64,000 nucleotides of DNA from Octopus vulgaris. Its lineage: Eukaryota. The notes under the pieces are model-generated. The model was not told where the DNA came from. It searched no databases and saw only the letters and a list, made by a program, of their open reading frames with translations. A program made the translations under genes and the position numbers. Shown here in pieces: positions 5,731-61,052 of the stretch. The stretch spans positions 68,076,001 to 68,140,000 of the forward strand of contig OX597830.1 of the NCBI GenBank assembly GCA_951406725.2, read 5' to 3'. The stretch's first letter is position 1, and the number at the start of each line of letters is the position of its first letter.

Positions 5731-7021
5731 TCATCATCATCGTTTAACATCTGCTTTCCATACTAACATGGGTTGGACGATTTGACTGAGGTCTGGCAAA
5801 CCAGGTGGCTGCACTAGGCTCCAATCTGATATGACAGAGTTTCTAAAGCTGGATACCCTTCCTAACTCCAACTACTTCGAGTGTGTAGTGGGTGCTTTTA
5901 TGTGCCACCAGCATGAGGGCCAGTCAGGCAGCACTGACAACGGCCATGCTCAAATGGTACTTTTTATGTGCCACCTGCACAGGAGCCAGTCCAGTGGCTC
6001 TGGCAATGACCTTGCTCGAATGTTTTTTCACGTGCCAACAGCACAAGTGCCAGTAAGGTGACACAGGTAACAATCACACTCGAATGGTGCATTTTATGTG
6101 CCATCGGCAAAGAGGCCGGTAGTTGGTCTGGTAACGGTCACGCTCATATGGTACCACGGATGCCAGTCATCGAATTTGATTTTGATTTCGATTTCACTTG
6201 CCTCAACAGGTCTTCGCAAGCAGAGTTTTGTGTCCAATGAAGGAAAGGTATGCATAAGTGGGCTGGTTACACCCATGGCACGGGTCACAAGGTTATTGTC
6301 TCTTTTGAGCTTGCCGGGTCTTCTCAAGCACAGTATATTTCCAAAGGTCCCGGTCACTAGTCATTGCCTTGGTGAGGCCCAATGTTTGAAGGTCATGCTT
6401 CACCATCTCACCCCAGGTCTTCCTAGGTCTACCTCTTCCACAGGTTCCCTCAACCGCTAGAGTGTGGCACTTTTTCACATCCATTTGCACCACATGACCA
6501 TACCAGCGCAGTTGTCTCTCTTGCACACCACATCTGATGCTTCTTAGGTACAACTTTTCACTCAAGGCACTTACACTCTGTCGAGTATGCACACTGACAT
6601 TACACATCCATTGAAGCATACTGACTTCGTTCCTTGCAAGCTTACGCATGTCCTCAGCAGTCACAGCCCATATTTCCAGGCCATGTAGCATGGCTGTTCG
6701 TACACATGCATCATACAGTCTACCTTTTACTCTGAGCGAGAGGCCCTTTGTCACTAGCAGAGGTAGGAGCTCCCTGAACTTTGCCCAGGCTATTCTTATT
6801 CTAGCAGCTACACTTTCAGAACACCTTTCCCCTCTACTGACTTGGTCACCTAGGTAATGGAAGCTATCAACCTCTCGCAGTTTTTCTCCCTGGAATGTGG
6901 CAGGAGTTGTTCTCTGCACATTTTCAGTGTTTATTGCTCCTGAGTATCTGCCACATACAAAATCTATCCTCCTAGTTAGCCTTCCTTTGATATTGCTGCA
7001 CCTCTTATGTGTCCATAACTT
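5728..7021 (-). mobile_element. RTE-clade LINE 3' end with (GAT)n tail, cut by the gap
   Basis: ORF 6293-7021 with RLYDACVRTAMLHG, RQLRWYGHV and GRGRPRKTW. Confidence 0.9.
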
Positions 7022-7121
7022 NNNNNNNNNNNNNNNNNNNNNNNNNNNNNNNNNNNNNNNNNNNNNNNNNNNNNNNNNNNNNNNNNNNNNNNNNNNNNNN
7101 NNNNNNNNNNNNNNNNNNNNN
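7022..7121. other. Assembly gap (100 N)
   Basis: N run; different elements on each side. Confidence 1.
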
Positions 7122-9190
7122 TGTAGACCAGTCAACACAGGGTAGATTGAAGTCTCCCATCATGAGTATGTTGCTAGAATGGCACTGTTGAATAAAGCAC
7201 TTAATGCTGTTGAGGCATTCTTTAAAGCACAGTATGGGTGTTTGGGGCGGCCTATAGAGCCCAATTACTGTCAGATCATTGGCTTTGTTGTGCACGGTGA
7301 CTGATTCACAGTAGCCGTTGGAGAATATACTATTTCCATCTGCCGTAAATGAATCATGCAGGAAAATGGCAGTTCCACCCTTCCTCCTGCCGATACGATC
7401 CGCGCGGATGGTTGTGAAATTCTTCACTCTCACTTCGGCTTCCAAGTGGGAGTTGTCAAGGTGGGTCTCAGTGAGAATGAAGAAAGGGATGTGGTGTGAA
7501 TGGTTACCAACCCAGTCTTCAATGAATTGGACCTTCCATTTTTGTGCATTGATGGAAGGGCTGACACCTTGTGCATTGAGTAGGAATGTGGAGGTTAGTG
7601 TAGTGGCTGGTTTTGACTGTTGCAGGGGGCTTGGATTTTTTGTGTGTGTTAGTGGCAGCAATGTGGGGAATTGGTGCACTGGGGTAATAGCATAGGATGG
7701 TGTTGAGTGATGGCTAGAATGTTTTTTGTATCTCTTTTGCCATGTTCAACATGGCTAAAAAAGAATGTTCCTGCTTAGGGAGCAGTTTTTGGCTGGAGGT
7801 GTGGTTGCACTGTTGGATAGGGTTGTAGTTTCCACTTTTATTGTTGTTGTTTTTGTGTCTTCCTGAAAAGACTGGACCAGCATTACTGCAGCATGGTGTG
7901 TTTCTATTTTTATTTTTATTCAGGTTTGTGTGTTGGCTTGAAGCCCCGTTTCTGTTTGTGCGTCGGGTCCCTGGAAGATGAGTGAAGGGACAGTCACTCA
8001 GCAGACATGTTCTCTCACGTTGGGAATACCGGCAGATTTTGGGACTCCGAGTTGTGTGTGTTTTGAATTTCGATTTACTATTTGGTGGCGTTGATGTTAT
8101 TGTGGGATGCGTGCTTTGGCCTTGGCCGGTAGTGCGTCTAGTGCCGGGTAGATGCGGGAAGATGCAGTCACTATTTGTGCAGAGTCTCTGGCGCAGTGAA
8201 TAGCGGCATATTTGGGGATTTCTTGTTTGTGCCGTGGGGGGCGCATTCTGCTTCCTATGTTTCTTTAAGTTTTTGTTACTGCAGTAGTATTGAGGTGGTG
8301 ATGTGGGGGAAGAGGGCAGTGGTTTCTTATTTGGTTTTCTGTTGGTATTTTTGGTGATAGAAGACGATGGTGGCAGCGGTGGTGATGATGATGATGATAA
8401 TTGTGGTGGTTGCTGTGAGAGCGGTGAAAAGATACTGGCATTTAGTGAATCATCTAGTAAGCTAGAGTTGAGGAGTGGCTGTTGTTGTTCTTGTTGCTGT
8501 GGCTGTTGTTGTTGTTGTTGTGCTTGACCGATGTTAGGGTCAGCCATTGTGCTGGGAACCAGGAGTGGCTCATTCTGTTGTTGTTGTTGTTGTGGCTGCT
8601 GATTTTCTAGCTGTTGCTGTTCTTGAACTGTGAAAATATGAAGAAGCTTTTCATAATGGCCTTTTGTCAGTTTGAAAGATACTTCGATATGTTTCAGCTT
8701 GCTTCGAATCTGTTTGACGGATCGTGTGTTGACCACTTGTGATGTTTTTTCGGCAATCTCATTCAAACACAAAACATTTAGATTTTCTGTTTGGGAAAGA
8801 GAGAACCATGTGTTTATTAAAACATCAATTTCGTTATCAGACCAATTTCGTCTGTTGCAGGCCTGCAAGTTAGTCATGTTTGTTTTTCTTTTGTTTGTTT
8901 TCCCTTTGATTTTTGAAAATATATATATATTCTTTCTTGGGAGTTAAAGAAGTGTATATATATATATAAATGTTCTCTCTTAAGGGTGTGAGTTTTTGAT
9001 TATTTGGTTGTTTGAGGATATTAAAAGAAAAACAGGTGTATATAACAATTTGTAGTTAAATGAAAACGTACTTACGGGTTTGTAGGCAAACACGTGGTTA
9101 CAAATATATATATATTTAAGGTCAGTTAGTTTTGAAGCTGTGTAGCTTGCTACTGACTTGGGAGAGAAACAAATAGACGTCCGTCCACTT
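7122..9190 (-). mobile_element. APE-type LINE (CR1/L2-like) 5' half: ORF1 7714-8877 and start of ORF2 endonuclease 7122-7679
   Basis: ORF2 has NAQG, LTETHL, RADR.GRRKGGTAI, GLYRPP and MGDFNLP (APE motifs); ORF1 is an open 387 aa with two CCCH fingers. Confidence 0.88.
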
Positions 9191-17713: not shown

Positions 17714-20118
17714 CTATGTTTGACTTTTGCTTTATGTCTGTACAAGTTGGCTCCAAGTCTCACCCAGAGACCTCAAGAGACAACAGGTTAGAAGTTCTGT
17801 GCCATATATTTGGTTTTTTTTTTTTCTTTGGTGTTGTACTAGTGAATGTCTAATACATAAAAATAAAAAATAAACAAAAAAATAAAAAATAAATAAAAAG
17901 TAAAAAAAAAAAAAAAATTTTTTTTAAAGTTTGTTTTAAACCTTGGGATTACATAGAGAGTATTTTGCGTAGGATATGAGCAGTTCCCATGAGCACTATC
18001 TTTTGAATTTCTGCCAGTTTGGGGTTTCCTGGTATCTGAGTTAGGTAGCACTCAGCCCCTTTTGTTATCATTCCCAGGGCACCTATGACAACAGGTATTG
18101 TTTTAGTCTTCAGCTTCCACATTTTGCTGATTTCTATTTCAAGATCTTTATATTTGCTTAGTTTTTGGTAGGTCTTGACAGATACGTTTATATCGATTGG
18201 GACAGTCATATCAATGAGGAGGCATGTTCTTTGTCTGAAGTCTTTCAATATGATGTCTGGCCTATTTGCATCTATCTTCCTGTCAGTTTGAATGGTGAAG
18301 TTCCAGAGGAGTGAGATGTGGTCATTTTCAAGCACAGGAGGTGGATTGTGTTCCCACCAGTTTTTTTCATGGGGCAAATCCAGGTTTTTGCAAATTACCC
18401 AGTGAATATATTGTGCTGCTCTATCATGCCTACTGAGGTACTCTGTAGGCGCTAGAAGACTGCATTTGGAGACAACATGGTCAATGGTTTCATTTTGTTG
18501 TCGGCATACACGACATGTTGGGCTACTGCCGTTCTTTAATGTGTTGGCCTGGTAGTTTCTTGTTGGTAGGCATTGATCTTGAGCTGCTATGATAAACCCC
18601 TCTGTTTCAGATTTTAAGCCAGAGGCCATTAGCCATTGATGGGTCAGGGCTTTGTCGATATCTGCATTATTCGCTCTCTTTGGGTATTTGCCATAGAGAG
18701 GTTTTTCTTGCCATTTATTATTCAGAATATCTAAGGCCGCAGTTTTGGCACGGGTTTTCATGCGCCTAGCTTTTTCTGTGTTTGTTTCTTGTATGTCTAT
18801 CTCTAATTCCGAAATTGGTTGTATTCGGAATTCACTTAGATATTCCTTTGCCTGTTTTGTGACTGAGTATGATGCTTTCTTGTTTTCATGTTTTGAGACA
18901 AGTTTTAACATCCAGTCCTCAGAGTTTTTCAGGTAGGTGTCTAGACCAATTGTAGCAATCTTCATTGTTATTGCCAGTTGCAAAAGACCACGGCCTCCCT
19001 CTTTTCTTGGCAGATAGAGTCGTTCTGTATCTGCCTTAGGGTAGTGCATTCTATGCATTGTCAACAGTTTCCTTATTTTTCTGTCGAGCTGACATATTTC
19101 AGTGATTGACCAGTTAACGATATTGAAACTGTAAGTCACGACTGGCATGGCTAATGCATTGATCGCTTCGATCCTGTTCCTCGCATTCAGCTCTGTCTTG
19201 AGTATTGCTCTCACTCTTCGATAGCATTCTCTCCTGATCCTTTCCTTCATCTCTGAATGCCTTATTCCTTCTCCTTCAATTACCCCTAGGTACTTGTAGC
19301 TCTCCGCTGGGTCTAGTTCTTTTATGACATTCTGTTGGTCAAGGTTAACGTTAGATGTTTCTGTCATTTTTCCTTTGATAAAGGTAGCCTTTGCACATTT
19401 ATCGAGGCCGAATTGCATTCTGATGTCGTCACTGAATTGTTTGACTATCGCTAGTAAGCCCTTGAGTTGTTGGTCATTTTTTGCAAAAGCTTTAAATCAT
19501 CCATGTAAATGAGATGATTTATATTTTTATCAAACATTTTATACCCGTACTGCGCGTCATTGAGCAGCTTTGAGAGAGGTATTAAGGATAAACAAAAGAG
19601 GAGTGGTGACAGTGAGTCACCCTGGAAAATGCCACACGAAATTTTTACATCACCTGCATTTAGGGATTCATTGTCACTGTTCAGAGTTAGTGTGGTTCTC
19701 CATGATCTCATACTTACAGTCAAGAAGTTTCGCAGAGTAGGTGCTATCTTATACATTTCCAGGCATTTCATAATCCAGCTATGTGGTAGGCTATCAAAAG
19801 CCTTTTTATAGTCTATCCAGGCTATTGATAAGTTTTTGTGTCGTTTGTGACAATCTTCTAAGATCATCTTATTGATGAGTAGTTGGTCTTTACAGCCGTA
19901 GGATCCACGTTTACATCCTTTCTGTTCATTAGGGAATATGCTGCTGTCTGTTAAAAAACTATAGGTATATTCCGTCAGGACAGATGTTAGTGTTTTGTAC
20001 ATAGTTGTTAAGCAGGTTATGGGTCTATAGTTTTTTGGTTCATTTGTTTCTTCACTTTTTGGAAGCAGGAATGTTAACCCATTAACTAGGAATTAACTTG
20101 GAAGCAGGAATGTTAACC

Positions 20119-29349: not shown

Positions 29350-31100
29350 GTTAGAAATGACTACGTTTCATGGCTTGTTTTAGGTGAACATGGGATTGAG
29401 AAATATATTAAAAATTGAGTAGCTCTTTTGACGTTTTGAACTGAGAATAATCTGGTTGTTACCAACAATCTGTTTAAGCAGAAAAATAAATATGAAACCA
29501 CCTGGATGCACCTATGATCTAAGCACTGGCATCTCATAGATTATATTTTGATCAGAAAATGTGATATGAAAGATGTTTCTAGTGTTTGGGTCATGAGAGG
29601 AGCAGAGGGCTGGACTAACCATTATCTAGTGTGTGGAAAAATAATTTTTTTGATAATGCCTAAAAGTTGACTGCTTGGTCCTATGGTATGCAAAAAGTTA
29701 AATGTTGCAAACTTCAAAACAATCTATGGGAAGATTTAGAAACAAAAGTATTTCAGGCTGCAAGTTCATCAGTGGGATTTAAATCGCGAACGTCCAGTGA
29801 CTAGTTCTCAGATAAAATCAACAGAAATTCATGACCTACTTTTCGAAAAACAATACTTAGGCAATACACTTCTTTCTCAGTCCTTGAACCCCAACTCAAA
29901 CAAAGCTTACCAAAAGCTGAAAGGCAAAGTGCTGACTGCTCCAAGGAAAATTAAAAAGGAATGGTGTAATGATAGAGTAAAAGAAGCAGCTTATAGAAAT
30001 GATGCCATGGGTTTGAACTCTTATGCCAAGGAACTATACAGCCCCAAATCCTCTTCAATAGCTCCAGTGAGAACAACAAATGGACGTTTGTTTCTGACTG
30101 ACACAGCTTCTATTCATAAGTGCTGGGTGGAACATTTTTCTGCACTTTTGAATAGACCGTCATCTGATGACATGAAGATGATAGAAAAATTTGAACACCT
30201 GGCTATAGAAGAGATGGCGTTTGAACCAACTCTGAATGACATTTATTTAGCTGTGAATAAGCTTAATAGCAATAAGTCTCTAGGGTCTGATGTAATCTGT
30301 GCAGAGGTCTTGAAATATGGGGGTGACAAAATGTTTGTACTCTTAACTATATTAATTAGTCAATGTTGGAGAACTAAGAAAATGCCTCAAGACTGGATTG
30401 ATGCCATTTGAGTTTCCTTGTATAAATCGGGGCCAAAGGATCTGTGTGGTAATTTTCGTGGGATTTAGCTTTTGTTTGTGGTTGGAAAGGTACTTGCCCG
30501 CGTTCTGTTAGAACGTTTAAATACCTTCATAGTTCCAAATAAGGTGTCTGATTCTTAATGTGATTTTTCACTCCTCCAGGAGAACAGTTGATTGTATCTT
30601 TACTATCAGACAATTTTAGGAAAAGTGCATTGAACAGAATCTTGCCCTATACCATTGCTTTGTTGATTGAAGCAAAGCATTCGATACTGTTAATCGAAAT
30701 GCTCTGTGACTAATTCTAAGGAAAATAGGTTGCCCAGAAAAATTTGTTAACATGGTCAGGGCTTTGCATCAAGATATGACAGCTAGAGTGATATTTTGTG
30801 TGTACAGTATGTGACAGATAATGCCTTTCTTTCGTTGGGCTCAAATATCATTTGTGAATCCATGGAAAGCAAATCTCCACCAGTTATTTTGCCTGTATGT
30901 CTGTGCACACCTTCCAATGCAATGTATGCCAGGAGGTTTGCAAATCTAACGGAGGCCTCAAAAGACATTTTAAGATCCACAAAGATCAGAACTTAACTGC
31001 AGCTCTTGGTGGTCTAAATCAGATATGCAATCTATGTGAATGGCCTTTCAAAATATTGTCTGGTTTAAAAAGCCACATCAGATGCCATGATGGTTCTAAA
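29350..31100 (+). mobile_element. RTE/BovB-like LINE, decayed (APE end, RT, C2H2 tail)
   Basis: TTWMH..SKHWHLIDYI, WVEHFSALLNRPS, PQDW.DA, FVD.SKAFDTVNR. Confidence 0.85.
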
Positions 31101-35176: not shown

Positions 35177-35728
35177 GAGACAGAGGAAAGTCCAAGAGAA
35201 AAGGAAGACAGAAGAAAAAATCACCAACAATTCACATGTAGTTACATTTTGGAATGACCAGAAGGAGATAGACAAAGAAAAAGTTCTTTCTAAGACAGGA
35301 GAGTGTAAAAGGAGGGATATATGTGTATGTGTAAGTATATGCATGTGTGTGATAGCATGCGTGTATGTGTTTGTGTGTGTATATGTGTGTGTAGCAGTAA
35401 CTGAGTGTGTGTAGCAGTAACTGAGTGTGTGTAGCAGTAACTGAGTATGTGAGTGTATGTGGGTGGTGGTAACTGCGTGTGTGTGCATATGTGTTGTAAG
35501 TGGTAATAACTGTTTATATGTATGTGTGAGTGATCTTTGTATCTGTTAATGCTGGAGGAAGAATTCGGCAGCAATGGTACCAGAAGTAGTGGTCTTTGGT
35601 GTAGTTGTGTGGGTGCATATATCCTGTATGTATTAATTTCATCCTTGTGTACAAGTCGCATCGGTGGTTTTGAATCGTTTTGACTACCATCTTTCACCTA
35701 ATGGTGCTACAAGTATTACCCTTCATTT

Positions 35729-35781
<53 letters not shown>

Positions 35782-35977
35782 ATAATAATTCTCTAAAAGG
35801 GATATAGACAGTAACTGCTCGATAACATAAGGGACTAAAGCCATCTGAATATGGCTAGGGACAGGGCAGGGTGGTGGGGGTGTTACTGTTGCATTTAGCC
35901 CAGGCGAACATCGACGTCACCAGAAGGCTCGACACCGTCACGGTGCCCTTACCCTGCAAGGGAGGTAATTCCCCGAT

Positions 35978-36051
35978 GAAGCGGAAACCACACACGGACC
36001 ATGGTTTCAAGGTGTATTGCCTATCATCGGCGTGTGGTAGGCCTCCGCTTC
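35978..36051 (-). ncRNA. Type I hammerhead ribozyme (family A, copy 1)
   Basis: Minus strand: ccacacg-CCGATGA-taggcaatacacctt-GAAA-ccatgg-TC-cgtgtg; predicted cleavage between 35997 and 35996. Confidence 0.8.
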
Positions 36052-36620
36052 CTCGACGAATTCTCACTCTGCAGGATTTTCTTATATAGATTTTCAAGCA
36101 AAACACATTTGCTGATTACGAAAATCTGTTCGAAAGTAATAATAATTCTCTAAAAGGGATATAGACAGTAACTGCTCGATAACATAAGGGACTAAAGCCA
36201 TCTGAATATGGCTAGGGACAGGGCAGGGTGGTGGGGTGTTACTGTTGCATTTAGTCAGGCGAACATCGACGTCACCAGAAAGGCTCGACACCGTCACGGT
36301 GCCCTTACCCTGCAAAGGGAGGTAATTCCGCTTCATCGGGGAATAACCTCCCTTTGCAGGGTAAGGGCACCGTGACGGTGTCGAGCCTTTCTGGTGACGT
36401 CGATGTTCGCCTGGGGCTAAATGCAACAGTAACACCCCCACCACCCTGCCCTGTCCCTAGCCATATTCAGATGGCTTTAGTCCCTTATGTTATCGAGCAG
36501 TTACTGTCTATATCCCTTTTAGGGAATTATTATTACTTTCGAACAGATTTTCGTAATCAGCAAATGTGTTTTGCTTGAAAATCTATATAAGAAAATCCTG
36601 CAGAGTGAGAATTCGTCGAG

Positions 36621-36694
36621 GAAGCGGAGGCCTACCACACGCCGATGATAGGCAATACACCTTGAAACCATGGTCCGTGTGTGGTTTCCGCTTC
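36621..36694 (+). ncRNA. Type I hammerhead ribozyme (family A, copy 2)
   Basis: CCGATGA 36642-36648, GAAA 36664-36667, palindromic stem III ACCATGGT, GUC cleavage after 36675; stem I cacacg/cgtgtg extended by gaagcgga/tccgcttc. Confidence 0.82.
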
Positions 36695-36979
36695 ATCGGG
36701 GAATTACCTCACTTTGCAGGGTAAGGGCACCGTGACGGTGTCGAGCCTTTCTGGTGACGTCGATGTTCGCCTGGGGCTAAATGCAACAGTAACACCCCCA
36801 CCACCCTGCCCTGTCCCTGGCCATATTCAGATGGCTTTAGTCCCTTATGTTATCGAGCAGTTACTGTCTATATCCCTTTTAGGAATTATTATTACTTTCG
36901 AACAGATTTTCGTAATCAGCAAATGTGTTTTGCTTGAAAATCTATATAAGAAAATCCTGCAGAGTGAGAATTCGTCGAG

Positions 36980-37053
36980 GAAGCGGAGGCCTACCACACG
37001 CCGATGATAGGCAATACACCTTGAAACCATGGTCCGTGTGTGGTTTCCGCTTC
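36980..37053 (+). ncRNA. Type I hammerhead ribozyme (family A, copy 3)
   Basis: Same motif; core 37001-37007; cleavage after 37034, 359 nt from the previous site. Confidence 0.82.
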
Positions 37054-37339
37054 ATCGGGGAATTACCTCCCTTTGCAGGGTAAGGGCACCGTGACGGTGT
37101 CGAGCCATTCTGGTGACGTCGATGTTCGCCTGGGGCTAAATGCAACAGTAACACCCCCACCACCCTGCCCTGTCCCTAGCCATATTCAGATGGCTTTAGT
37201 CCCTTATGTTATCGAGCAGTTACTGTCTATATCCCTTTTAGAGAATTATTATTACTTTCGAACAGATTTTCGTAATCAGCAAATGTGTTTTGCTTGAAAA
37301 TCTATATAAGAAAATCCTGCAGAGTGAGAATTCGTCGAG

Positions 37340-37413
37340 GAAGCGGAGGCCTACCACACGCCGATGATAGGCAATACACCTTGAAACCATGGTCCGTGTG
37401 TGGTTTCCGCTTC
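37340..37413 (+). ncRNA. Type I hammerhead ribozyme (family A, copy 4)
   Basis: Same motif; core 37361-37367; cleavage after 37394, 360 nt from the previous site. Confidence 0.82.
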
Positions 37414-37612
37414 ATCGGGGAATTACCTCACTTTGCAGGGTAAGGGCACCGTGACGGTGTCGAGCCTTTCTGGTGACGTCGATGTTCGCCTGGGGCTAAA
37501 TGCAACAGTAACACCCCCACCACCCTGCCCTGTCCCTAGCCATATTCAGATGGCTTTAGTCCCTTATGTTATCGAGCAGTTACTGTCTATATCCCTTTTA
37601 GGGAATTATTAT

Positions 37613-37656
<44 letters not shown>

Positions 37657-37657
<1 letters not shown>

Positions 37658-38040
37658 CAATAATAAATCTCTGAACGAGATGTAAACAGTAAGCGCTCGA
37701 CAACGTAAAGTATACTAGCCATCTCAATATGGCTAACCACTAGGGGTGGGTGTTACTGTAGCTTTTTAGCCCCAGGAGATCATCGTCTCCAGCTGGCTTT
37801 AGACACAATTTCTGTGCCCTTATGATATTTGCAAAGGGAAGTCATCCCCTCTCGTAAACCTAAGTGATACGCATGGACTGCAGTTTCGAGATTACTGTCT
37901 CTTGTCAACACACGGTAATCACCGGTTTTTGATGAGGAGAGACCTGTTTGCGAATATCTATTTAATGTTTTTCCCAGTAACCACTGTCACTGATTTCGAA
38001 AAACGGTCTGAAAGCAATAATAAATCTCTGAACGAGATTT
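37657..38040 (-). mobile_element. Retrozyme-like element family B (357-bp unit plus ~27-bp terminal redundancy)
   Basis: Diverged homolog of family A; gcaataataaatctctgaacgaga occurs at 37657 and 38014; abuts (TA)n. Confidence 0.8.
37864..37922 (-). ncRNA. Type I hammerhead ribozyme with U3-A8 core (family B)
   Basis: Minus strand: gtgattaccgtgtg-TTGACAA-gaga cagtaa tctc-GAAA-ctgcag-TC-catgcgtatcac. Confidence 0.82.
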
Positions 38041-38044
38041 TAGA

Positions 38045-38822
38045 CACAAATTAAAAATTCAATATACCAGAGTAAAATTACTACTGGTAATGAAGTATTT
38101 TTTTATATAGGAAGCACATCTTCTCAGTTATCTAAAAGAATTTCTAATCATTACTCTACATTTAGGGATAGGAATAAACATAACAGTACAGGGCTTAGTA
38201 AATTAATTTGAGATCTAATAGACCACAGTAAACAATTTAATTTAGATTGGTTGATTCTCTCAATCTTGATACCTTATGACAAATGTAAGGAATTCTATCT
38301 TCTCTGTAATTCTGAACTATTTTTTATTCTTTTTTCTAAAAATCCCCTTGTAAACACGATTATAGAGCATGCGTACTGATGTAAACATTGGCAGAAATAC
38401 ACCTTTAGTTCATATAAGTGATATCTATCATTATATATAATTTAAACATTAAATTTCTTCCATTTCAAATTCACTGGATATATCTTTTCCAAGTCTATAT
38501 AGTTTTATTTAATATACATATAGTTATATACTTCTCATTTATTTGGTTTTTCTTTCCTTTATCTCTCCTCTTTCTATAGGCTACCTTTGACGTTATATCC
38601 TATAACGTTTTTTTAAACAAACTTTATAGCATTCAGTTAATCACTATACATATCCATCATTTTCTGTTAAAATGTCTTATTGATGAGTTTTATTTCTTCA
38701 TTTCGCTGAAGAGAAGATTACATTGTTTTACACCATTTTATTCCTTTGGAATAAAACCAGTGATGTCTTCGAAACGTGTCGGAAGTAAAAGAATTTGAAT
38801 AACACCTGTGTTTAACTCCATT
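38045..38822 (+). mobile_element. 5'-truncated Penelope-like element: decayed GIY-YIG endonuclease plus pLTR
   Basis: Translation near 38062-38215 IYQSKITTGNEVFFYIGSTSSQLSKRISNHYSTFRDRNKHNSTGLSKLI; hammerhead at ~38700-38790; (TA)n from 38823. Confidence 0.8.
38697..38790 (+). ncRNA. Penelope-type minimal hammerhead (partly decayed)
   Basis: CTGAAGA 38706-38712, long stem II gaaga.../...tcttc, GAAA-cgtg-TC 38771-38780; stem I imperfect. Confidence 0.65.
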
Positions 38823-38829
38823 TATATAT

Positions 38830-38893
<64 letters not shown>

Positions 38894-39269
38894 ATGTGTG
38901 TGTGTGTGTATTAGGGATACAACCTTTTTGCAACTCCATTGACCCGTATCATATTCTTGCTTGAAGATGTATTATTGTATGCTGCTGATGACAAAAATTG
39001 CTATCATTTTTTATAGAGATTAATAATAATGAAGTTACAAGTATTTAAATTTATGAGATTTTAGCCATTCAAAGACATCCACATGCTGGCAGATCTTATG
39101 TAAAGATTTTTCTATCCATGAAGTGTGGTGTCGTTGAGTCAGCCTACTCGGGATTACTGCAGTGCAACCGTACAAGAATGCCTCTAGAAAAGTTAGGCCA
39201 AACTTTGGACACCATTCTTTTCCTTGACTGACTTACCAAGGCCATTGGTAACCCATTACAGTGGAAGCA

Positions 39270-40620
39270 AAAGCAAAAGAGAAAAACTTCCTTTTTGTGA
39301 GAAGTTGGAATGTGCGCACACTCCTGGCTCTGGATGACACAGACAGACCCAAACAGTGCACTGCTTGTTTGAGCGGAGAACTGAATCCTTACAGTGTGGA
39401 CATCACAAACCTACCCAAAACAAGACTCACTAGCACTCTTTTTCTGTAAAGTTAGAAATCTTACAGAGCAGTGAATCCTCGGTCATGGTTTTGTGAAGAA
39501 TTCCGTAGTGAACAGAACACAATCTGTCTCCCACCTCTATCATTGAGTGCCTCAAGAACAATCGTCTTGCGTTAATCTTAGTTACTGCTGCTACCCTTGA
39601 TTCTAGATATGAGATCAAAGATTTGTAATACTCTAATCTCAACAGGACAAGCCAAGAGAGATTTTAATGCCAGGGTCGATGAACTAATGAACACTGGACG
39701 AGAATTCTGGGAAAACAGGATGTGGGAAACTGAAACTCAAACATACCGCTGTTCATTGGCTTATGCGCTGAAAATGAGCTTATGGTTATTTACATTTTCC
39801 CAACCAGCAAAAGACCACGTAAGAGCATCCAAGATAAAAGTGCTGGCACAACCTGGACTACTTTCTCACTTGATCCTGTGATGAGAGCAACGTACCAATG
39901 AACCACAGCCTCCCTGCCACAGAGGACTGCTGGAGGGATCATTGACTGCACAGGTTTTAGTTGCGAAACTTTCCATATCGCAATGTATCTACAAAGATAG
40001 AGTGGACACTTTGATGGTTTTGTTTCTAAACTGAAGACCTACGATGTTGGGGCGATCACTCATCACACCTCATGGAACTTTCTGAAGAAGGTACCCCACC
40101 ATTATCATTGACGGGCAGTGGACAGTGTTGAAGTATATTGGTTCATTTTAGGTAAAACGATCACCAAAGCTCCTGGGGGAATAACTGGCTTTTACAAACA
40201 CGCTCATTAAGACTGGTTTGACCAAAATGACGACCATATTGCCAAGCTGATCGATCAGAAGAGAGAATTTCGTCTGGTATAGGATTTCCCAATGTGAACC
40301 CACTTGCGATGCTTCTGGTAGGCCAAGCAGCAATGCCAGTGCAGGATCCATGAACTCCAAAATCTCTGGTGGCTAGCAAAAGCAGGGGAGATACAGTTGT
40401 TCGCAAACAGTAAAGACCCTAGGCAGGCGTTTCTATGCTGGGGAAAGGGGAATCGTTGGTTCTCCTAGTAGAGTAAACAATACACTCATATCCACTGCCA
40501 GATTAACCCCTTTGATGGACAATCAAGACACACTTAAAACATGGAAGGAATACTCTTGTCAACCGGCCATCTACTGCAATGATTGACCTCCTCTGAAGTA
40601 TCCCCTAATATCCTATCTGA
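39270..40620 (+). mobile_element. RTE LINE APE region, heavily decayed
   Basis: SWNVRTLL...DRP motif and DFNARV. Confidence 0.7.
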
Positions 40621-60759: not shown

Positions 60760-61052
60760 TGTAAAGATTTTTTCCGAACATAATGTGACAATCCTGATTT
60801 GGACGAATGTTACTGTTATTTAGCCACAGGAAACATGGTCTCCAGCTGGCTAACGACGCACTATTCCCTTTCAAACAAGGGAGCTTAGTGTCCTCACTCA
60901 GCTCAGAGAGCAATATCTATGTATCAATGCTTTCAGTTTTATTTCCCTTCATCAACATAGAATAACTGTTCAGCTAGAGATGGCGACACTAGTCACTTGT
61001 TTGATAGATATACTTTTCAAAGTGACATAAAATAACTGATCTCAAAAATAGA

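Follow-up and report, generated by a model that had tools for sequence, protein, structure and literature searches.

A retrozyme and a Penelope-like element joined 5'-to-5' between (TA)n tracts in Octopus vulgaris: a possible trace of one integration event with two RNA templates

Organization of the locus

The window, i.e., the whole 64-kb stretch of Octopus vulgaris DNA that was analysed and to which all positions refer, contains an array of hammerhead-bearing elements set among (TA)n tracts. By sequence inspection, an (AT)n tract at 35732–35778 forms the left end of a fold-back of one retrozyme family, termed A. The left arm of A (35779–36329, minus strand) consists of 1.5 units with its 3' end on the TA tract and one type I hammerhead (core from 36030), and the right arm (36326–37616, plus strand) of 3.6 units of 359–360 nt with three hammerheads (cores at 36642, 37001 and 37361). 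A (TA)20 tract at 37616–37655 is common to the 3' ends of the A right arm and of a second retrozyme family, B. The copy of B (37656–38038, minus strand) spans a single 357-nt unit and a further 26 nt of terminal redundancy, and its 3' end abuts the TA tract; its type I hammerhead (37862–37922, minus strand) has its core at 37908–37902, a U3–A8 variant pair, a palindromic helix III and a cut site at 37876. An 11-nt junction patch follows (38039–38049, plus strand), which is an exact copy of B 37798–37808 and whose last 2 nt fit the next element as well. That element is a Penelope-like element (PLE) on the plus strand, comprising a 5'-truncated remnant of a C-terminal GIY-YIG endonuclease with two premature stops (38048–38421) and a 3' untranslated region or pseudo-LTR (pLTR; 38422–38822). 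A minimal type I hammerhead at 38706–38780 (plus strand), with a long helix II and a palindromic helix III, is cut after 38780, 42 nt before the 3' end of the PLE, where a last (TA)n tract begins (38823–38889).

The first-pass annotation had given the order as (TA)n, B on the minus strand with its 3' end at TA, the PLE on the plus strand and (TA)n, and inspection bears out this order and orientation; the PLE motifs (IYQ...FYIGST...NH) and the hammerhead at 38706–38780 also lie where it had placed them. It had B at 37657–38040 and fused directly to the PLE. B does lie on the minus strand at the TA tract and the joint is 5'-to-5' without TA, but B extends from 37656 to 38038 and the 11-nt patch lies between the two elements. 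Every RNA-sense 3' end at the locus contacts TA, whereas the two inner joints are TA-free and 5'-to-5'; the geometry is indeed the one shared with the A fold-back.

The site is a compound TA hotspot with at least two insertion events within 3.1 kb, in a window that holds 19 TA runs of at least 16 nt. The outer flanks have only a 6-nt word in common, off the edges, and both ends lie in TA, which hides target duplications. No open reading frame (ORF) of at least 150 aa lies over the locus. An Rfam search of the window at gathering thresholds gave 0 matches, and the hammerheads are called here from a motif scan and inspection, without an Rfam match. The joint between B and the PLE is known from this one assembly and one locus. 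Elsewhere in the window, remnant ORFs of reverse-transcriptase (RT) type lie at 17949–20092 (minus strand), 6293–7159 (minus strand) and 29740–30411 (plus strand), all three of which we take to be other non-LTR elements, and a scaffold gap of 100 N occupies 7022–7121.

Retrozyme families A and B

The two families are about 62% identical in alignment, with a local alignment score of 183 that was reached by 0 of 200 shuffles. The motif scan places a type I hammerhead at all four A positions and in B, each with a palindromic helix III; hammerheads of this form are described as working as dimers (PMC4209133). U3 and A8 in the B core form the covarying compensatory pair reported for Cercyon PLE hammerheads, and the idea that the B ribozyme is decayed was therefore rejected. 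Core position 4 of the A hammerheads is C instead of U in 4/4 copies (36642, 37001, 37361 and 36030), whose activity is only predicted. Predicted circular folds beat 60 shuffles each (z = −4.8 for A and −3.9 for B), with a predicted pairing of the circular monomers of 67% and 63%, respectively. Both families match metazoan non-LTR retrozymes in their short non-coding unit, type I hammerhead, tandem or monomer copies (×3.6 and ×1.5 for A, ×1.07 for B) and lack of an LTR. Tandem, non-coding units of ~350–390 nt, as in mussel, with a type I hammerhead are described for these elements (Cervera and de la Pena 2020, PMC7229834). Homology of A or B to the PLE 3' region of the locus was undetected (17/200 shuffles for A and 27/200 for B score equally), and the A/B motif had 0 matches in metagenome scans. 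A fragment homologous to unit positions 36–131 of A/B lies at 60804–60883 on the minus strand (E = 6e-6); it lacks the hammerhead, and a TA tract is found some 60 nt away.

Both arms of A and the copy of B have their 3' stop at the identical aligned base, ±1, approximately 220 nt past the ribozyme cut (unit position ~219–221). For random ends, the expectation for two more ends within ±1 of the first is ~(3/358) squared, a figure that a T/A-rich primer preference would soften. A common internal 3' end far from the ribozyme cut fits what is expected of PLE-type internal priming. In addition, B runs over its own ribozyme cut site and repeats 26 nt, from which we infer that its template was probably circular or else an uncut multimer, rather than a linear monomer released by cleavage.

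The arms of A overlap by 4 nt (36326–36329). Its units differ mutually at only 10 columns of 360, and on the basis of this near-identity A is likely to be the later arrival, entering the same TA tract after B and the PLE. One G present in all four right-arm units is missing from both left-arm units, and the two variants that mark the mirror-adjacent right unit do not occur in the first left unit. These differences hint that the A arms were not copied from each other, and homopolymer errors could explain the indels.

The Penelope-like element

Read on the plus strand from 38047, the PLE gives QIKNSIYQ...FYIGST...KRISNH, with in-frame TGA stops at 38209–38211 and 38377–38379; with X at the two stops the remnant has 124 residues. 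An exhaustive protein search with its first 54 aa returned 36 proteins with E ≤ 0.001, the best of them at E = 8e-14; the two best relatives are Octopus sinensis proteins with 68% and 56% identity. Word-index protein searches with the remnant gave no match. P0005 and P0007 were rejected as relatives, being unrelated repeat proteins (at least 2 of the 10 rows inspected). No Pfam family was found above cut-off in the remnant or in five relatives (6 proteins), and metagenome scans returned no relatives of P0002. The GIY-YIG label is based on motifs in the relatives, which we take to be those of PLE endonucleases. At the matching stretch the relatives read LSSNSKIKNSIYQ, and PLE sequence therefore begins at 38048. 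In P0038 (544 aa), RT-like motifs, among them a YRDD that is presumably the RT motif of that name, lie upstream of an Asn-rich linker, and the domain of the remnant follows. The remnant aligns with the C-terminal endonuclease of its relatives, i.e., with the C-terminal EN+ PLE architecture. The Octopus sinensis PLE remnants P0002, P0003 and P0038 are annotated as host proteins.

There are no cysteines between IY and YIG in the remnant; a CKH (CxH) is present, and a CxxC kept in the relatives is decayed here. The CxCX5C linker, whose place falls outside the truncated piece, is absent from the six closest relatives (P0002, P0003, P0038, P0004, P0006 and P0012) and present in P0008, P0022, P0040 and P0036, with a shorter form in P0035 and P0041. 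In its endonuclease without CCHH, a CxH near the end, the hammerhead and the (TA)n target, the element would fit, on sequence features, the Hydra clade of C-terminal EN+ PLEs (PMC8557442), although the window copy is without RT and its closest relatives are without CxCX5C. The Hydra clade has CxxC and CxH flanking conserved E and N residues and a CxCX5C linker, whereas here the distant relatives have it and the closest Octopus sinensis relatives have the Asn-rich linker (PMC8557442). In P0002, P0003 and P0038 this linker between RT and endonuclease replaces the Cys linker, which may be compared with the N-rich inserts of Adineta Penelopes (PMC3846280). Naiad, which has a similar TA target, was rejected as the identity of the element, as its endonuclease is described as N-terminal and canonical hammerheads as absent (PMC8557442). 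Selenocysteine at the two TGA codons was likewise rejected, with most of the family depth reading another base at both. In the PLE hammerhead (fold z = −1.8), helix I of the window copy has lost its first pair, at a base from which 96% of the family depth differs.

Other copies of the two families

Contigs of four public runs were aligned to 37656–38822, with 5,767–8,104 contigs per run, where depth is not copy number; from these counts the B and PLE families are both abundant. Among the 15 joints listed of 76, five are strand switches inside the PLE, one is a strand switch inside B and nine are skips inside the PLE. The strand switches indicate that both families have made inverted joints at other loci. 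A link from B to the PLE occurs in 0 of these 15 listed joints of 76 and in 0 of the 12 table rows listed of 22, and none of the 32 contig pieces listed (there are 29,482 further pieces) bridges 38038–38048. The summed depth is 934–2,636 at 38046–38084 versus 34,799–147,817 at 38124–38162. Twenty sequencing runs match part of 35300–39400, with a best share of 0.58 and no RNA run among those listed; these shares are uninformative on the presence of the joint, since B and the PLE make up 27–38% of the words and polymorphism removes words too.

The first-pass annotation had regarded very different ages of the two halves as evidence against a single event. Among the 40 places listed of 144 that differ from the family majority, 10 fall in the 383 nt of B and 30 in the 775 nt of the PLE (Fisher p = 0.31); where the majority exceeds 85%, the same 40 of 144 places give 8/383 and 19/775 (p = 0.84). 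These counts are lower bounds from non-random rows. The difference is not significant in this sample, and the ages of the two halves look similar from these sequence counts.

The B segment 37695–37850 has a summed contig depth tens to hundreds of times that of the hammerhead part at 37890–37967, an excess that points to a segment common to a far more abundant repeat in which the ribozyme half is missing or diverged. In one run, 29 contigs leave B at 37768 with a consensus like the sense-strand 3' end of B, up to the identical stop. They hint at head-to-head pairs of B in which one arm is very short, although their median loose length is only 11 nt. Few family contigs cover 38460–38560 and 38046–38123, and other copies carry approximately 25–30 different letters in place of 38460–38560; the sparse coverage and the replaced segment place the window copy in a small PLE subfamily.

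The joint and its patch

No TA run lies at the joint, where a TA remnant had been named as a trace that would speak against a single event: the sole AT run in 38015–38075 is one ATAT within the PLE coding sequence. On both strands of the window, the 11-mer of the patch, and likewise the word formed by its first 10 letters, is confined to 37798 and 38039. Of 56,970 control 11-mers, 14 are found in B; when B and the PLE are taken together, with either strand allowed, the number is 78. The last base of the patch is the window copy's minority base at 37808, at which 89% of the family depth differs, and the PLE could supply this base as well. From its sequence, the patch looks like the product of a template jump, after which the ends annealed over 2 nt. 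Templated patches are also left by later end-joining repair, and the minority base at 37808 would indicate such repair only if the PLE were unable to supply it. We also considered 38039–38046 as a decayed continuation of B, which needs three substitutions and one insertion in 9 nt and is less likely than an exact patch; that reading would leave a direct fusion of B and the PLE unaltered.

Origin of the joint

The inverted arm at this joint is an unrelated retrozyme, which rules out self-priming or fold-back on the RNA of a single element. We propose instead that the joint between B and the PLE records one PLE-driven integration in which both strands of the TA target were primed and took different templates, B RNA and PLE RNA, and we put the probability of this reading at roughly 0.6. 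In work with purified Poseidon PLE protein, AT-rich DNA is nicked and both strands are extended, with synthesis beginning at fixed positions inside the RNA; the protein is a predicted dimer for which ribozyme cleavage is unnecessary (PMC11167929). The TA-free joint, the shared internal 3' end, the geometry of the locus and this published both-strand priming are all consistent with one event and two templates.

In the proposed sequence of steps, the PLE endonuclease would nick both strands of (TA)n. One 3'-OH would prime on RNA of the PLE itself, at a point 42 nt beyond the PLE hammerhead, and the other on B RNA at a fixed internal site, at unit position ~219–221 after the cut. The B cDNA would be extended by one turn and 26 nt and would then jump, copying 9–11 nt from elsewhere in B, before annealing to the truncated PLE cDNA by approximately 2 nt, with repair sealing the joint. 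Family A would land later in the same TA tract by a similar two-strand route. The enzyme is likely to be that of the PLE family at the locus, although the enzyme of another PLE could have copied both RNAs. The broader claim that PLE-type machinery primes on the A and B retrozymes is better supported than the claim of a single event, as the fixed 3' ends and the A fold-back, with its 4-nt overlap, support it too.

The first-pass annotation had concluded that one integration event copied two different RNAs. The geometry, the missing TA remnant and the common 3' ends uphold this idea, but two insertions and a deletion also fit the locus, and a B-to-PLE joint is absent from the 15 joints listed of 76. 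According to this other account, B and the PLE entered the same or neighbouring TA tracts separately, TA and the inner arms were lost by target-site or later deletion, and end joining left the patch. The compound TA site was hit repeatedly, at least twice within 3.1 kb, which favours chance neighbours, and both families are abundant (5,767–8,104 contigs per run) in a window with 19 TA runs of at least 16 nt. The patch carries the window copy's minority base at 37808, which would suit copying from the genomic copy in the window, and both deletions and joints with microhomology have been described in PLEs (PMC3846280). Yet the account requires an extra deletion that removed all TA and spared both 3' ends, the two halves are similarly diverged among the rows listed (40 of 144 places), and the neighbouring A fold-back is a head-to-head pair at such a site without any deletion. 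We consider two insertions less likely than one event but still plausible, and the main rival to it; the weights given here to all the explanations are judgements and not computed values.

The two halves may also have been copied from one RNA, either a read-through from a locus with B upstream of the PLE, twin-primed in cis so that B became inverted, or an existing B/PLE chimera copied whole. PLEs are described as carrying flanking DNA and other sequence between pLTRs (PMC3846280), and cis twin priming is the standard origin of LINE-1 inversions (10.1101/2025.02.02.635956). An amplified chimera is unseen, with a depth of 934–2,636 at 38046–38084 versus 34,799–147,817 at 38124–38162, and the joint is spanned by none of the 32 contig pieces listed, which makes this origin improbable; in its cis twin-priming form, the PLE enzyme would still be priming at the internal site of B. 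We give even less credence to a misassembly of two repeats between TA tracts. The absence of the joint from the listed contig pieces and the homopolymer deletions in the A left arm, which are typical of long-read error, would suit an artefact, but the joint lies in non-repetitive sequence with an overlap of at most 2 nt and a templated patch, and the many private changes in both halves leave no shared repeat for the assembler to cross.

Comparison with known systems and implications

PLEs usually carry an inverted 5'-truncated copy beside their 5' end (Craig et al. 2021, PMC8557442; PMC3846280), and the locus resembles such inverted-pLTR insertions in its head-to-head arms, outward 3' ends, microhomology at the joint and a (TA)n target that hides duplications (PMC3846280; PMC8557442). 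In those insertions both arms are one element, whereas at this locus a non-coding retrozyme unrelated to the PLE forms the inverted arm (PMC3846280; PMC8557442). How PLEs form inverted arms is unsettled in the literature (PMC3846280); in Adineta, no cross-mobilization between PLE types is described, and self-priming is favoured for the head-to-head forms (Arkhipova 2013, PMC3846280). The AT-rich target and fixed internal start, and on the reading proposed here also the extension of both strands independently of ribozyme cleavage, are shared with Poseidon PAc as studied in vitro (Frangieh et al. 2024, PMC11167929), where only the element's own RNA is described as template and the start lies in an AC-rich stem-loop, whereas the retrozyme ends here follow a UUAUUAUU run. 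LINE-1 chimeras with tRNA, 5S, U5 or Alu in opposite orientation, ascribed to twin priming, likewise combine two RNAs in one insertion (10.1101/2025.02.02.635956). They are confirmed by target duplications and orthologues, whereas the PLE machinery here is deduced from one locus (10.1101/2025.02.02.635956).

PLEs have been proposed as the mobilizers of retrozymes (PMC7229834). Co-occurrence and pLTR trees serve as evidence for the retrozyme–PLE relation in recent work that lists the mobilization mechanism as open (Li, Clavereau, Pollet 2026, bioRxiv 10.64898/2026.07.22.740005). Kinship to pLTRs is reported for Xenopus retrozymes, unlike A and B, which are without homology to the 3' region of the PLE at the locus (10.64898/2026.07.22.740005). 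A term search of that preprint's text gave 0 hits for 'junction', 'head-to' and 'target site'. Where the retrozyme evidence available in these reports consists of co-occurrence and pLTR kinship (PMC7229834; 10.64898/2026.07.22.740005), the present locus offers a physical joint together with an internal 3' end at a fixed position. The literature searched, mostly outside subscription journals, yielded neither a retrozyme/PLE head-to-head junction nor octopus retrozymes. The component parts are of known kinds; the mixed retrozyme/PLE joint is new.

More generally, and tentatively, PLE integration may normally take two RNA templates, one per strand, either of which retrozymes could fill by means of a conserved internal priming site. 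Mixed joints would then record mobilizer pairs without kinship, and the octopus PLE with the Asn-rich linker would be the partner of A and B; we regard this generalization as possible but doubtful. The mobilizing enzyme of animal retrozymes has so far been argued from co-occurrence and sequence kinship, and the locus now points to a candidate enzyme family and, within the retrozyme, to an exact position as the candidate start site. If B and the PLE arrived in one event, their mixed joint would bear both on the mobilizer of retrozymes and on the origin of PLE inverted arms, and would be physical evidence for Penelope enzymes moving retrozymes.
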